IMG/VR virus record: IMGVR_UViG_3300048672_001143
Location: 1 to 11,883 of that record
Length of the DNA: 11,883 nucleotides
Direction: 5' to 3' (one strand)
Source of the DNA: a virus
Lineage: Duplodnaviria; Heunggongvirae; Uroviricota; Caudoviricetes
How positions within the stretch are numbered: position 1 is the stretch's first letter; each line of letters starts with the position of its first letter. Positions 3,921 to 10,308 of the stretch are shown here, one piece after another. The notes under the pieces were generated by a model. The model made no database searches. It saw only the letters and a list, made by a program, of their open reading frames with translations, and was not told the origin of the DNA. Position numbers and translations under genes: made by a program.

Positions 3921-3949
3921 TAGATACAATATTATGACCGACATGTCAA
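3921..3949 (-). promoter_or_regulatory. Candidate sigma70-like promoter ahead of the spanin genes
   Basis: Perfect TTGACA at 3949-3944 overlapping the endolysin TGA; the hexamer at 17-nt spacing is TATCTA (weak), with TCTAAT at 19 nt; very AT-rich 54-nt gap. Confidence 0.3.
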
Positions 3950-4632
3950 ACTTCTCCTGTAATTAATACCCCTTGCGTCTTAAAGGGGACTTCTAATAGC
4001 CAGTTGCCTTCCGCTATCCTGGCAGCCATGCAGTCCATTCGGTATACGGTAGAATGTAAAATAGGGTTTTCTGCGGTAGCTAACCATGCCCTGCGCGCTT
4101 TTACATACGCTTTAATCCATTCTTTTTCAGCTCCCCCGGCCGCCGGTACTTTTTCAGAAAACTTTTCTCTGAGAAAATCGGGAACTCTCCCACTGTGGAT
4201 GTAAGAATCGTAGATAACTAGTGCCGATAGCGGCAAAGTGAAGCCATTTTTAGTCCCCCAGTTTATCGCGGGGATGTAATAACTCCCATCAAAAAACGTA
4301 TCTTGGGCCTGTTGCATAACGGGATCGGTGGAACCCGCTTGCTTTAGCTTGCTTTTAAAATTTATATCTTGGCTCAAGGGTTCTATACCTAATTTTGGTA
4401 AGTACGGCTTGAAATCTTCCGAGAATTTCCCCCCTAGTTCAATATACCGTAGTAATAGTTTTTTCAGATTGCCATATTCAGTAGTTTGAGATCGCCCAAA
4501 GGTGATCTGGGGTTTTTTACTTGGGCCGTCCTTCATAACCACTAAAGCATCGTACCGGCCGTGTAAAGTCCCGGTTTCGAAGGCATTTACGGTCTGTTCT
4601 ATAACGCGTTTCTGCTTAGTTGAAATGTCCAT
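3946..4632 (-). CDS. Endolysin, GH46 chitosanase/lysozyme-like fold (228 aa)
   Basis: NAFETG (catalytic Glu-like), DG...ITFGRSQTTEYGNL, QAQDTFFD..Y..PA, VIYDSYIHSG, E.EWI.AYV.ARRAWL, YRMDC motifs of GH46-like proteins; position between holin-like and spanin genes; no signal peptide. Confidence 0.85.
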   Translation of the reverse strand: MDISTKQKRVIEQTVNAFETGTLHGRYDALVVMKDGPSKKPQITFGRSQTTEYGNLKKLLLRYIELGGKFSEDFKPYLPKLGIEPLSQDINFKSKLKQAGSTDPVMQQAQDTFFDGSYYIPAINWGTKNGFTLPLSALVIYDSYIHSGRVPDFLREKFSEKVPAAGGAEKEWIKAYVKARRAWLATAENPILHSTVYRMDCMAARIAEGNWLLEVPFKTQGVLITGEV

Positions 4633-5491: not shown

Positions 5492-6745
5492 TTATGTGGT
5501 TATATCCGCAGGAAAATTATCGATCAATCCGTTAAAAGAATTACCTATTTTCCTGTTCGTTGCTGAATTTGTTACGTGACTAGTTTCTTTTTGTACGGCT
5601 ACTTTTGTCTTACCTGTAGGACTAGTAAAAGTGTTATTTATAAGGCTTATGTCGGAAGATGTTCCGTTAGAACCCAAATCTATGGCTATTGAAGACCCCG
5701 CATTACCGGTTCCACAATCCGATAGCTCGTTATTGCTTATAGTTAAAGTGTCTACACTCGCTATTACTAAACCTTTTCCGCTTATACTCCCGTTAGTCTG
5801 AAGTTTATTGCCCGTAAAAAGAACATTGTATACCGTGGACGTATTCGAGAATCCTATGAAATTACTATCCGTGCAATTCGATATGTTGTTTCCGGTTACC
5901 GCTACGCCAGAACCTCCAATTACAGTAATACCTTTTACGCTATCGGATACGTTATTATTAGCCGCGGTATATGTATAGCCTACTATACTGGCATTGGCTC
6001 CTCTGGCATCATAATAGTTTAAAGCGACCTGACAATTGCTTAAAATATTGTCTTTAATGGTTATATTGCTCGGCTCTTGGGTAAACGCTGCATTTTTATA
6101 AAACACCGTTATAGCCCCGACGTTCCCCCCTATATCTAGCAGAGTGTTATTCCGTATTGTTATGTTTTTATTTATATCGGTAACCAGATTTGGTTCTATG
6201 TCGATAGCTCCCGGCATATCGTTTCTGGAACACCTTGTAAATATACAATTTTTTACTGTTAATCCGTCTACCGTTATGCTAGAAACAGCATTGCGGTTTT
6301 GTTTATTTACCCCGTCAAACAGGCATGAATCTACTACTACGTCCTGATTCGTCGTGCCAGCTGAATTAGAACCTAAATACACCCCATCCCCTTTCCATCC
6401 CGTAAACTGTACCGCCTGAAAAAGAACATTTCTGGCATTATTCGTAAATACTAGGTGCGTATGCTCTTCAAATATCGGGGCATCTGAAAATCCTCGGATC
6501 TGTAGGGACTTGAAAGTAACTCCAGAGGCTCCGACTATATTTATAGAATTTGTTCCGGCTACTGCAGTGGGTGATTGCTTAATAATAGTCGCGCTGCCAT
6601 CTCCGAAGATAGTTACGGATTTAGAAATTAAAAGTTTATCGACTATATAAACTCCGGCGGGTACATATATTAACGAGCCGGTATTTATAGCGCTGTAAAA
6701 AGCTAGTGTGGAATCCGTTGTTCCAGTTCCATCCGCTTTAAACAT
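5492..6745 (-). CDS. Pectate-lyase-like right-handed beta-helix protein (tailspike/depolymerase-like), 417 aa from first ATG
   Basis: FKADGTGTTDSTLAF...GSLIYVPAGVYIV opening motif of Pectate_lyase_3-type domains; many Asn/Ile/Val beta-helix turns (ITIRNNTL, ITIKDNIL, VAVTGNNISNC, LTISNNEL); GDG and AIDIEPN motifs. True start uncertain (see findings). Confidence 0.85.
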   Translation of the reverse strand: MFKADGTGTTDSTLAFYSAINTGSLIYVPAGVYIVDKLLISKSVTIFGDGSATIIKQSPTAVAGTNSINIVGASGVTFKSLQIRGFSDAPIFEEHTHLVFTNNARNVLFQAVQFTGWKGDGVYLGSNSAGTTNQDVVVDSCLFDGVNKQNRNAVSSITVDGLTVKNCIFTRCSRNDMPGAIDIEPNLVTDINKNITIRNNTLLDIGGNVGAITVFYKNAAFTQEPSNITIKDNILSNCQVALNYYDARGANASIVGYTYTAANNNVSDSVKGITVIGGSGVAVTGNNISNCTDSNFIGFSNTSTVYNVLFTGNKLQTNGSISGKGLVIASVDTLTISNNELSDCGTGNAGSSIAIDLGSNGTSSDISLINNTFTSPTGKTKVAVQKETSHVTNSATNRKIGNSFNGLIDNFPADITT

Positions 6746-6775
6746 AAGTACATTTACGGACTCACCCGCCGCCAG

Positions 6776-7633
6776 TCATCCATAGAATAGCGTGACCGTC
6801 ATATGCTCTAAAGTTATGTAATCCGAAGCGGTATTCAGGGTTAACTGCACGGTTATATTTTTATCTACCGTAGAGTCTTGCGTCCCTGTGACAGGGACCG
6901 TTGTTACTGGACCTGCATTTCCTGGAGAACCTGTAGCAAAGGCTATCTGCTTAGTTAAACTGTTATTGTTTCGCACTCTGTGCGTTTCTTCGATTGCGAC
7001 CGCGGTAGCTCCAGGTGCTGGATTTTTATACGAAAAAGTGCCATATAGAAATGACATTCTTTTAGTGCCTGCCGAAGCATTACACCAGCTCATGTGGTAG
7101 GTATCAAAGTACCCATTTTCGCTAAGTGATCCCCCTGGAAGCGTATAACTGACCGTTGGTATAGTAAAGGTACTTGTTTGCGTGGTCAGAGTACCACTGG
7201 CAGTTTGGCTGACTGCGCTTACACACGTAAACGTATTGGCATCTACCATTTGAAAATCATCATAGAGCCCTGCCGCAATAGCAGCTCCAGTTGTTACGGT
7301 AGCGCCCCCGATATAAACACGTTTCCCATTATGCACGGTGGCTGGAATATTGTGCGCCGTTGAGGTCACCGTAATTAGATTTCCTGTTTGTGAATACGTT
7401 GCCGCATTCGCCGCCGCCAGGGATGGTAGCACAATACCAAAATACTGGTTAAAAACTATCGTGGGGGCCGCAGTCCACCTAGACCCATCACTAGTAAACA
7501 ATACCGATCCAACTTGGCATTTCCAAGGTCTACCGCCGTAATAATCCGCTGGAGGGCGTTCAGCTATCGTAGCGAATACCGGATCTTTATCTAATAAGAC
7601 GGGTGTGCTGCCATAAGGTAATGTGTCTGCCAT
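6776..7633 (-). CDS. Putative virion fibre/receptor-binding protein 2 (285 aa) with shared N-terminal module
   Basis: First 41 aa are 40/41 identical to the 553-aa gene; the YSQTGNLITVTSTAH...V..DANTFT segment resembles the FCCH-like beta repeat of phage tail proteins; Thr/Ser-rich beta C-terminus; ends in TGA in frame with the next ORF. Confidence 0.7.
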   Translation of the reverse strand: MADTLPYGSTPVLLDKDPVFATIAERPPADYYGGRPWKCQVGSVLFTSDGSRWTAAPTIVFNQYFGIVLPSLAAANAATYSQTGNLITVTSTAHNIPATVHNGKRVYIGGATVTTGAAIAAGLYDDFQMVDANTFTCVSAVSQTASGTLTTQTSTFTIPTVSYTLPGGSLSENGYFDTYHMSWCNASAGTKRMSFLYGTFSYKNPAPGATAVAIEETHRVRNNNSLTKQIAFATGSPGNAGPVTTVPVTGTQDSTVDKNITVQLTLNTASDYITLEHMTVTLFYG

Positions 7634-7677
7634 AGTAGTTCTTTTATGCCTCTAAAAATAAGTATCGTCTATCTCGT
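7512..7677. repeat. 166-bp direct repeat, copy 1
   Basis: 161/166 identical to 9219-9384 (offset 1707); covers the intergenic region and codons 1-41. Confidence 0.97.
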
Positions 7678-7678
7678 A

Positions 7679-9340
7679 TTACGCTGGTTTCTGCCAAGGG
7701 AATTTCGCAAGAAGCCATTTTCTAGCCCGCATAAAAATATATTTCGGCGTTACTACTGAACGCCCCAAATAAGTAATATCGGCGGTTTCGAGCAGCTTGT
7801 AAGCTTGCGTGTAAGGTGCTGGCGTTACATATAAACCCGGTGCAGGTGCTGGCGCTTCGGTAACAAAATAATAAAGGTTTGTGTCAAGTGGGTTATAAAC
7901 CAATGACCTTACGGTCTCGCCTGTTTCAGGATGCCCCCATAGCTGGGTGTTCATATTAAACCCGTTAGGATTTCCCGATACCTGTGACATCATTAAATGT
8001 TTTCCGCGCTTATCTCCGCACCCATATACACCAGTAGGCGCTCCCTTTGCTGGGTTTAACTCGATAATATCAACAGGGTAGTTATAAGCGTATGGCGTGG
8101 CGTTATTTGTCCATCGCGCCCAAGTGTCAGTTGCAATTGCAGTGCAGCGCCATAGGCCAACATCAGCCCCATAACCATTATCACCGACAGAAGCCCACAG
8201 TTTTACTGTCTGGTCTGAAAAAAATGAATGTATGTGCCTAGCTCCTGTCATTTGCTTTGATAGCGTCCATGTTGGCGTTCCAGACAAGGGGCCGTATTTA
8301 AATATTCTAGGTGGGGCTGGGTCTGCTGGGTCTGTAGTTAGATCAGCAGCGGCGCTATACTCACCCCAAACTAAGTAATCTTGAAATAGGGCGATACCAT
8401 AAGGGCGCGTCGTTGCTAATGACCTTTTTAAGCCAGTCTGTATTGGGCATGTAATATCTGTCCAGGTTGCCGAAGATGTTAGGTCTGATGATCTATAAAT
8501 ACTTGTATCTGATCGCAACAAATAGAGCTGGTTATTATACTCAAGCAGGTCTGATATGACGTATACACTAAGTGCAGGAGCGGTCATTAAGTCGGTCCAA
8601 GTGTCGCCATCAGTCGATACGGTTATCTTTGAGTTGGATGCTCTCAAACCATAGGCTTTTGATGATGTGTAGCCGGACAGTGCTGCGCCCACTACTGATA
8701 TGCCGGTAAAATCGACCGGGGCGAAATTATAGGGTGTATCCAAGTTTACAGCATGTCCAACAAGTTTAGGATGGCTGCTTGTTGGAGTGATGCTTGTAAT
8801 CAAGGTATTCATAGGCATTATTGACGTTCTAAAGAACCCGCCATACCCCTGAACAAATGTCATTGTCGCCGTAGTGCCATTGCATGACACAGCATAATAA
8901 TATGTTCCTGGGTCTAAAGTCGTAGGAACATGGGAGAACTCAAATGGCCCAGCAATAGGAACTTCTCGCTGCTCAGTGGTCACAAGCATATTCATTGTGT
9001 TGTCAAAGATAGCTATTTCGATTAGCTTAGATGCTTGAGTTGTTCCTATATATCCAGAAACTCTGTTTAATGTGATTGTTTCGCTTACAACAAAAGGGGC
9101 CAATCTAATATCATTTATTACCGTATCTATCGGGCTTTCGCCTTTTGTCTCAATTGTAATTAGCCCAGAATTTAGCGCGCGCCATGCAATACCGTTACTG
9201 GTATACATCGTATTATCTACTTGGCATTTCCAAGGTCTACCGCCGTAATAATCCGCTGGAGGGCGTTCAGCTATCGTAGCGAATACCGGATCTTTGTCCA
9301 ATAAAGCGGGTGTGCTTCCATAAGGTAATGTGTCTGCCAT
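7679..9340 (-). CDS. Putative receptor-binding protein 1 (553 aa): shared N-module + beta-sandwich + BNR/Asp-box beta-propeller
   Basis: Asp-box-like motifs STDGDTWTDL and SSDLTSSATWTDI, plus GEY and RHIHSFFSD...LWASVGD motifs of BNR/sialidase-like propellers; middle domain TLDPGTYYYAV is beta-sandwich-like. Confidence 0.7.
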   Translation of the reverse strand: MADTLPYGSTPALLDKDPVFATIAERPPADYYGGRPWKCQVDNTMYTSNGIAWRALNSGLITIETKGESPIDTVINDIRLAPFVVSETITLNRVSGYIGTTQASKLIEIAIFDNTMNMLVTTEQREVPIAGPFEFSHVPTTLDPGTYYYAVSCNGTTATMTFVQGYGGFFRTSIMPMNTLITSITPTSSHPKLVGHAVNLDTPYNFAPVDFTGISVVGAALSGYTSSKAYGLRASNSKITVSTDGDTWTDLMTAPALSVYVISDLLEYNNQLYLLRSDTSIYRSSDLTSSATWTDITCPIQTGLKRSLATTRPYGIALFQDYLVWGEYSAAADLTTDPADPAPPRIFKYGPLSGTPTWTLSKQMTGARHIHSFFSDQTVKLWASVGDNGYGADVGLWRCTAIATDTWARWTNNATPYAYNYPVDIIELNPAKGAPTGVYGCGDKRGKHLMMSQVSGNPNGFNMNTQLWGHPETGETVRSLVYNPLDTNLYYFVTEAPAPAPGLYVTPAPYTQAYKLLETADITYLGRSVVTPKYIFMRARKWLLAKFPWQKPA

Positions 9341-9384
9341 AGTAGTTCTTTTATGCCTCTAAAAATAAGTATCGTCTATCTCGT
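9219..9384. repeat. 166-bp direct repeat, copy 2
   Basis: Partner of 7512-7677; the five mismatches correspond to copy-1 positions 7589, 7592, 7598, 7599 and 7610. Confidence 0.97.
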
Positions 9385-9385
9385 G

Positions 9386-9619
9386 TTATTCTTGATCATA
9401 CACGCCGCTCAAGAGATTAAATTTAAACTGTTCAATAAGAAAGAGTATCCGCGCTGGGTCACCCGTATGTGAAGCTATCCAGTCATCCCCGTTATGGCAT
9501 CGGCCTATTACGACAACTTGCTGAAGCTCGCCCATTGCGCCGGCTAAAACGTCATCCGGATCAATATCCAGATTTCGATTAACGGGAAAATGGATTATAT
9601 TATCTTTCATCGCTAGCAC
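9386..9619 (-). CDS. Small conserved phage protein (74-77 aa; ATG at 9610 is a plausible alternative start)
   Basis: NIIHFP...LDIDPDDVLAGA...VVVIG...WIAS...ILFLIEQFK pattern resembles a common phage hypothetical family; abuts or overlaps the adaptor TAG. Confidence 0.7.
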   Translation of the reverse strand: MLAMKDNIIHFPVNRNLDIDPDDVLAGAMGELQQVVVIGRCHNGDDWIASHTGDPARILFLIEQFKFNLLSGVYDQE

Positions 9620-10308
9620 ACAGTCATTTCAAAAGGGACGTCCGTCTGCCGCTCACGAATTACCACAGCAGGCAAACGTGGGCCAAACCGTTCTTCGAAC
9701 ATCGCGAATTCTTTTTCCGACTTTTTTTCGTTAAAAGTATCCGTATCTCGCTTTAAATACGCTAATGCGGTAATGCCATATATCAAATCTGGGTGCCATA
9801 TCTCATCTATCTCGGGAACATCTCCGTCGGATTCCAAAAGAACGGGCAACCGTCGTACGTCTAGATACGCGGTATCCGCTTTGTTCGGGGTGCCCATAAA
9901 AGTAATGGTTCTTACGAAAATCCCGGAGTCCTCTCCGGTTCCAGCCTGTGTTTGATCGAGTGCGTAAGCAAAAGGTGTGCCCGTAAAGTCCATTCGGGTG
10001 GAATAGTACTGCTGTTGCTGCCGAAAACTGACTTCTTTGAGAAGATTACTTGGTTGAGACGCTAAATAAACCGATTTAACGGCCAAAAAACCACTAGGAA
10101 GTGCATATTTTGACCTCCACGTCAGGTCTACGTTTTGTGTGAAAACTATTGGAATATCGTCTTGGACGACCAAATTGGCGCGTAAGCATGCATCTCGAAG
10201 GGTATCGTTGGTGTAGTCAAGAATTTCTTCATCCGACCACAGGTATTCGGGGTTTTTATCGTCTAGCCGAGATCTAACTCTGCGGCGTATGTCTGCGAGT
10301 GTTAGCAC
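9613..10308 (-). CDS. Head-tail adaptor/connector protein (231 aa)
   Basis: MLTLADIRRRVRSRLDD...YLWSDEEILDYTND...YALP...GTP..Y...PEIDEIWHPDLIYGITALAYLKRD: helical-bundle adaptor signature; lies downstream of the capsid genes; GAGG RBS before GTG. Confidence 0.8.
   Translation of the reverse strand: MLTLADIRRRVRSRLDDKNPEYLWSDEEILDYTNDTLRDACLRANLVVQDDIPIVFTQNVDLTWRSKYALPSGFLAVKSVYLASQPSNLLKEVSFRQQQQYYSTRMDFTGTPFAYALDQTQAGTGEDSGIFVRTITFMGTPNKADTAYLDVRRLPVLLESDGDVPEIDEIWHPDLIYGITALAYLKRDTDTFNEKKSEKEFAMFEERFGPRLPAVVIRERQTDVPFEMTVC

Follow-up and report, generated by a model that had tools for sequence, protein, structure and literature searches.

The UGA that ends the coat gene of phage Qbeta is read through at a few per cent, and the product, A1, is a minor and essential virion protein. 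The locus described here resembles that system in that a single UGA ends a structural protein, which would be the abundant form, and is followed by an in-frame extension lacking its own start, which would give a minor long isoform with an extra domain. The two differ in other respects, since Qbeta is a ssRNA levivirus in which readthrough has been shown experimentally and is conserved, whereas the present case concerns a dsDNA SU10-like phage with a candidate 427-aa, probably enzymatic beta-helix extension. C-terminal extensions of structural proteins are also made in tailed phages by programmed frameshifting, as in T7 gp10B, Cps and Tsh of Listeria PSA/A118, SPP1 gp17.1* and lambda gpG/GT. 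These systems have in common with the arrangement proposed here a recoding event at the 3' end of a structural gene and a short major and a long minor form made from one start; unlike them (they shift to -1 or +1 at slippery sites), the frame in our locus is unchanged and only a stop codon would have to be passed. To our knowledge programmed readthrough is undocumented for structural genes of tailed phages, and a literature search for it in such genes found none.

Two other kinds of receptor-binding locus bear comparison. In the branched dual systems (Klebsiella KP32-type phages, E. coli G7C gp63.1/gp66 and CBA120 TSP1-4), receptor-binding genes stand in tandem and a depolymerase lacking a full anchor is carried by another receptor-binding protein, an arrangement similar to the present one; unlike the latter, the second protein of those systems is initiated separately and bears a docking peptide or domain, whereas zero residues precede the beta-helix here. 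Scars of receptor-binding cassettes are similar in their mosaic composition, in the truncated tailspike left over beside a newly placed cassette and in the lack of initiation signals. Typical scars are short and decaying, whereas the leftover at this locus is predicted to be a complete and intact catalytic domain, joined in frame at a domain boundary.

The late module and the junction behind RBP2

The window (the whole stretch of DNA analysed, 11,883 nt) comes from an uncultured virus whose genome, complete at 87,848 bp, has direct terminal repeats and a GC content of 45.8%; the window covers its first 11.9 kb. Its late module lies on the minus strand in the order SU10-type adaptor, 77-aa ORF, RBP1, RBP2, 417-aa beta-helix ORF and lysis cassette (Table 1). 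The adaptor protein upstream of the fibre genes matches PF24175 at 9613-10308 (65.8 bits, cut-off 27), and SU10 portal, MCP and adaptor are present at the loci of relatives; this is a phage with a SU10-like podophage tail module. A GH46-family (chitosanase-like) protein occupies the endolysin position (3946-4632, minus strand; PF01374, 49.4 bits).

Table 1. Features of the fibre and beta-helix region, in window coordinates
Feature	Coordinates	Strand	Basis
RBP1, 553 aa, RBP2-type anchor and body with BNR-like motifs	7679..9340	-	translation, profile match
RBP2, complete 285-aa fibre gene, TGA included	6776..7633	-	ORF, 261 homologues
5' repeat, intergenic leader and about 41 anchor codons	7512..7681	-	170 nt, 96% identical to 9219-9388 before RBP1
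RBP2 stop UGA, next nt C (UGA-C), preceding codon GGA (Gly)	6776..6778	-	family-canonical C-terminus
10-codon in-frame spacer LAAGESVNVL	6746..6775	-	Pfam, homologue alignments, profile gain
SD-like GGGTGAG, too distant from ATG 6745	6761..6767	-	dG -6.1 kcal/mol, 17 nt from ATG
Out-of-frame ATG, 7 nt past SD-like run; 16-codon ORF overlapping ATG 6745	6751..6753	-	read from sequence
First in-frame ATG of the beta-helix frame, inside conserved N-terminal cap	6743..6745	-	homologue alignments
417-aa right-handed beta-helix ORF (PF12708/PF13229)	5492..6745	-	Pfam, PHROG 2234, AF2, Foldseek
Candidate readthrough ORF, 713-aa fibre-depolymerase fusion	5492..7633	-	one frame, single internal TGA

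A first-pass annotation of the window had proposed readthrough of the stop between RBP2 and the beta-helix ORF, and the layout from which it argued is confirmed. The minus-strand junction reads ...CTA TTC TAT GGA TGA CTG GCG GCG GGT GAG TCC GTA AAT GTA CTT ATG TTT AAA..., and RBP2 (7633-6779), its TGA (6778-6776), exactly 10 sense codons (6775-6746), the ATG (6745-6743) and the ORF ending at 5492 all lie in one frame, so that the frame of the 713-aa product expected on readthrough is interrupted by a single TGA. The sole SD-like run is the GGGTGAG listed in Table 1, as had been stated. The in-frame layout alone means little, since at 19 places in the 87.8-kb genome a single stop separates two same-frame open stretches of 80 codons or more. 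The unusual feature is that homology to the beta-helix family reaches upstream past ATG 6745 to the stop, and a scan of the spacer found no ATG, GTG or TTG, its only near-cognate codon being CTG. A search for a promoter or terminator between RBP2 and the beta-helix ORF found neither.

The fibre terminus and the ancestry of the spacer

RBP2 consists of an N-terminal anchor common to RBP1, a small beta repeat and a beta-sandwich tip; its AF2 model has a pLDDT of 86, and fold searches returned generic beta-sandwich or lectin-like matches only, with Z up to 7.7. An exhaustive HMMER search found 261 homologues (E down to 1e-78), and among the 150 of these that were listed the alignment extends to residue 270 or beyond in 105. 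The C-termini of these 105 representatives are nearly uniform: among the matches listed, 102 end at most 5 residues from the end of RBP2, their tails align strand for strand, and P0102 and P0117 have the same length as RBP2 at the terminus. Judged by these alignments, the fibre protein is complete and the TGA at 6778-6776 is its inherited stop. When readthrough was first proposed, a nonsense mutation within a fused gene was offered as an alternative; it is unlikely, since the TGA stands at the canonical C-terminus of the family, with 102 of the 105 ending within 5 residues of it. Some BLAST alignments of the beta-helix cross the stop, and RBP2 M278-G285 was considered as an N-terminal peptide of the beta-helix; this was ruled out, as the segment matches the C-terminal strand of the RBP2 family in sequence and exact length.

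The three exceptions are true fusions in which a C-terminal enzyme domain follows: P0173 has a BNR-like propeller and P0186 a GH5 domain, and P0222 is an incomplete copy of the P0173 type. Both P0173 and P0186 are continuously translated under table 11 and have lost the stop entirely. Like the candidate fusion in the window, they place a glycan-active domain behind an RBP2-type fibre-tip domain, and unlike them the window keeps its stop. The architecture is viable, as natural proteins that join this fibre domain and a C-terminal enzyme on one chain exist.

On the other side of the stop, 427 codons are open. The spacer falls into two halves of 15 nt, the first GC-rich and linker-like, the second encoding the opening strand of the beta-helix. 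The claim that the SVNV part of the domain lies upstream of the ATG was borne out: on the 427-aa extension PF12708 aligns from residue 7, which is the first V of SVNV and corresponds to profile position 2. Counted from the stop, homology to the profile sets in at residues 4-7, and the BLAST alignments of most of 98 homologues begin at extension residues 1-8. Against a profile built from the N-termini of 60 homologues the sequence scored 75.4 bits with the spacer and 66.9 bits without it, a gain of 8.5 bits, and none of 300 versions with shuffled spacer residues reached 75.4 bits. The Met of ATG 6745 takes the D position of the conserved V-x-V-K-D-F-G-A opening (the VKDFGA motif). Among 97 homologues the first strand is present in every intact one, and a start at or after the position of this Met (Met11) was found, besides the window's own call, only in the truncated fragment P0037. 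By homology, the spacer has coding ancestry and encodes the conserved opening strand of the beta-helix.

The domain itself scores 49.4 bits for PF12708 (cut-off 27) and 45.7 bits for PF13229 (cut-off 25.9) and matches PHROG 2234, a tail spike group. Its AF2 model has a pLDDT of 93.6 and places residues 7-12 within the fold. Foldseek matches include CBA120 TSP3, AlgE4/6, phi29 gp12 and RbmB, with a probability of 1.00 for CBA120 TSP3, phi29 gp12 and the HK620/Sf6 tailspikes. Five alignment columns are invariant (G155, P188, D192, E194 and P195 in window numbering) and occur in the window protein by definition, and no internal stop interrupts the 417 codons. From sequence and model, the 417-aa beta-helix is a probable polysaccharide depolymerase or modifying domain, and the enzyme domain looks intact.

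It was also correctly noted at the outset that the beta-helix lacks an anchor of its own. The ORF was found to have neither an N-terminal virion-binding or docking module nor an extra C-terminal domain, at least 25 residues precede the domain start in 88 of 109 homologue matches but zero in the window ORF, and the downstream receptor-binding genes of relatives do carry their own anchor motif. A search for the anchor motif in the beta-helix homologues did not find it. In two stand-alone homologues (L058:243-300 and L059:2976-3030) a conserved peptide, MxLTK(V/A)(T/S)YSMIxG, precedes the first strand; gene callers clip it at an internal Met. This peptide may be a docking peptide.

Base composition changes across the junction. 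GC3 is 0.53 in the RBP2 body and 0.35 in the beta-helix, with neighbouring genes at about 0.45-0.49, and the AT-rich part of the spacer begins where beta-helix homology begins while its GC-rich part resembles the RBP2 side. The coincidence of the composition switch with the homology start puts the joint at about E291/S292, exactly at the domain boundary. An unselected joint would be in frame with a chance of 1 in 3. The repeated sequence before RBP1 and RBP2 (7512-7681 and 9219-9388; 170 nt, 96% identical) represents a common anchor cassette and, from this sequence comparison, recent cassette recombination at the locus.

Junctions at related loci

Close relatives were not found by megablast against phage records, and IMG/VR protein scans with either ORF returned only a 34% identical beta-helix relative and no RBP2 relative; the best homologues overall are 39% identical for the beta-helix and 60% identical for RBP2 (P0100). 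The next gene after P0100 (ENA ERZ1426827) begins 21 nt past the stop in the same frame, on a contig with SU10 adaptor and capsid genes; a search with short N-terminal beta-helix fragments, made to identify that gene, found no match.

At distant loci of the RBP2 family the gene that follows brings an ATG, SD and N-terminal module of its own, in many cases with an RBP2-type anchor motif. It begins after a gap of -4 to 65 nt, and its frame across about 44 distinct family junctions is distributed roughly evenly over 0, 1 and 2. The nearest relatives for which DNA is available (L004, L064 and L060) end in TAA or TAG and have a separate downstream gene in another frame. When readthrough was proposed, a good ribosome-binding site and a variable frame in homologous loci were named as observations that would speak against it, and both are seen in the distant relatives; on the other hand, the downstream genes concerned are not homologous to the beta-helix and, unlike it, are self-sufficient.

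One distant member shows a similar junction. The fibre gene of L076, about 41% identical to RBP2, ends ...GAT TGA CTG GCG GCC TCG GCG GAG GAT TAC GCG ATG... (L076:922-951), and the 11 nt TGACTGGCGGC are common to it and the stop context of the window; across 876 codon-aligned nt the two loci have just one other exact run of at least 7 nt. The post-stop peptide is L-A-A-S-A-E in L076 and L-A-A-G-E in the window. A different anchor-less module, of 228 aa, follows the stop in frame; its one distant homologue, P0252, in which it is a C-terminal domain, is uninformative on the module's first 29 residues. The shared motif fits a reusable readthrough or linker joint, and a shared initiation region would be an equally good reading because in L076 the ATG of the module is preceded, at 7 nt, by a good GGAGGA.

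Two further, distant RBP2-like genes (L079:2078-2121 and L070:1280-1323) end G-TGA-CT(G/C), followed by exactly 13 in-frame codons, LNQDSLYLDLVIQ and LIDDSLLSELIIL, which are 46% identical with synonymous changes between them, the flanking genes being 41% identical. After these 13 codons a second TGA overlaps the ATG of a ConA-like plus GH5 gene. As far as the sequence comparison goes, the post-stop extension in these two loci looks translated. In the family tree the four TGA-CTN members fall at scattered positions, and no extension was found in L142 and L143, which are sisters of TGA-CTN members. An IMG/VR pattern scan for GARCAY-N24-TGACTGGCNGC gave 37 matches, none of them next to an RBP2-like gene, and all are thus regarded as chance matches.

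Readings of the junction

All readings have the recombination joint in common and differ in how, or whether, the module is expressed. Readthrough fusion is preferred tentatively as the best single explanation of how the beta-helix module is made; its prior is very low and it falls somewhat short of being probable. A horizontally acquired beta-helix depolymerase module would have recombined in frame directly behind the natural UGA of the lectin-like fibre gene, with the whole domain and its first strand kept from about E291/S292 onwards and the donor start codon, N-terminal peptide and anchor lost. Most ribosomes would stop at the UGA and yield the 285-aa fibre. A small share would read UGA-C as sense, most likely via a near-cognate tRNA such as tRNA-Trp, and would continue through the linker L-A-A-G-E into the beta-helix, the resulting 713-aa fibre-enzyme fusion bringing the depolymerase onto the virion via the RBP2 anchor.

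The natural stop, the coding ancestry of the spacer, the lack of an upstream start and the mosaic composition are observed features of the locus. Readthrough would explain why the module is in frame and complete yet has neither a start nor an anchor, and it would also account for the rare natural fusions. We infer that it may reach a useful level and have been selected for; either way, traces of the fusion protein are probably made by basal leakage at UGA-C. A C after the UGA reportedly makes for weak termination in E. coli, as at the prfB recoding site, and TGA-C also terminates several other genes in this genome. Counting against readthrough, the arrangement is known from a single genome with no close relative in which conservation of stop, spacer and frame could be followed.

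The short and long isoforms first proposed are partly supported by the coding spacer, the poor SD of the ATG, the missing anchor and the fusions elsewhere. The word programmed is not supported: neither a stimulatory RNA structure nor a suppressor tRNA was found, and most features of the locus would be accounted for about equally well by a recombination scar. Folding of the 151 nt that span the stop was no stronger than that of shuffled sequences (z = -0.12), with no sign of a stimulatory or SECIS-like RNA, and the phage encodes only three tRNAs, Gly(tcc), Pro(tgg) and Met(cat). The genes of these tRNAs lie within C1:21818-21976 and 61344-61421, and the GGA before the RBP2 stop is the codon read by tRNA-Gly(tcc). 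In a search for genome-wide TGA recoding, the gain in open frame from reassigning TGA did not exceed that from reassigning TAG or TAA. Stop-codon reassignment (codes 4 or 25, or phage late-gene recoding) was rejected, as TGA is common as a stop (it ends 25 of 77 called genes) and no suppressor tRNA is present.

An extended form of the readthrough reading would make the junction a reusable joint (UGA-CUG-GCG-GC, linker L-A-A-[G/S]-E) at which selected UGA readthrough places exchangeable C-terminal modules on a minority of lectin-like fibre subunits, the beta-helix here and the 228-aa domain in L076, with short and long isoforms from one gene; this extension is possible and lies on the unlikely side. 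If readthrough is real, it would be, as far as we know and from the literature searched, the first reported case of a tailed-phage receptor-binding protein extended into a fusion by stop-codon readthrough. A bulky depolymerase would be dosed at few copies per virion without a separate anchor, host-range exchange would have a novel type of module boundary, and gene calling in fibre genes would have to look beyond natural stops.

Rather unlikely is the possibility that the junction is a dead or dying recombination scar, in which cassette exchange left a 5'-truncated beta-helix gene behind RBP2, in frame by chance, not usefully expressed and still intact because the event was recent. The mosaic GC3 (0.53 against 0.35) and the 170-nt repeat, which points to recent cassette recombination, agree with it, as do a full domain without start or SD, the normally self-sufficient downstream genes of relatives and the frequency of in-frame neighbours in this genome. 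Such a scar sits less easily with 417 codons free of stops and frameshifts that encode a domain well above the Pfam cut-offs with a confident fold, with a joint placed exactly at the domain boundary so that the first strand is complete, and with the junction motif common to L076, which suggests constraint. Were it only a scar, the locus would be an ordinary by-product of receptor-binding cassette shuffling, yet a clean example of a boundary-exact joint.

The two genes may also be expressed as separate proteins, by re-initiation or weak initiation at AUG 6745, with a 417-aa enzyme that lacks its first strand and is either free or docked non-covalently; this we consider unlikely. The ATG lies 30 nt past the stop, a distance compatible with termination-reinitiation, which reportedly operates over such distances, an SD plus ATG occurs in the equivalent place in L076, and separate downstream genes are the rule in the family. 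The initiation signals argue the other way. A clear SD (dG -4 or below) precedes 53 genes of this genome and lies at a spacing of 4-9 nt in 44 of them, whereas ATG 6745 has none at that spacing, its nearest pairing ending 17 nt upstream, and the out-of-frame ATG 6753-6751, 8 nt upstream of it, is better placed and would compete from an ideal distance. The SD of RBP1 and RBP2 is itself oddly distant, at 14 nt, and the poor-SD argument against ATG 6745 is therefore moderate and not strong. The product is a further difficulty, since an N-terminus clipped in this way is seen in none of the 97 homologues except one truncated fragment, residues 7-12 belong to the fold in the AF2 model, and the protein would have no anchor or docking peptide. 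A complex prediction of RBP2 with the 417-aa beta-helix scored 0.00, which is evidence neither for nor against docking.

A truly fused 713-aa gene, in which the TGA would either be an error of sequencing or assembly or represent a nonsense variant present in the population, is very improbable. The frame is fully open on both sides of the TGA and natural fusions of the fibre domain exist, but the stop stands exactly at the canonical terminus of the family, as expected for an inherited stop and hardly for a random error, and consensus substitution errors are rare in assemblies. Initiation of the full domain at CUG 6775-6773, right after the stop, is scarcely credible: no other near-cognate start lies ahead of the first strand, and the conserved internal Met of homologues with short N-termini aligns with it, but CUG is a very weak start codon in bacteria, no SD precedes it and the true homologue start lies 9 codons further upstream (MxLTKVTYS). 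A related idea, that stand-alone homologues start at the Met aligned with the CTG and that TGA and ATG ancestrally abutted (TGA|ATG), was ruled out, as L058 and L059 likewise start 9 codons upstream of that Met.

Elsewhere in the window, three genes on the minus strand at 254-1966 (1966-1613, 1603-1169 and 1168-254) follow each other consecutively, all in one frame, and the last two abut as TAA|ATG. The 304-aa product is extremely Gly/Ala-rich and weakly matches PHROG 863 (tail fibre assembly).
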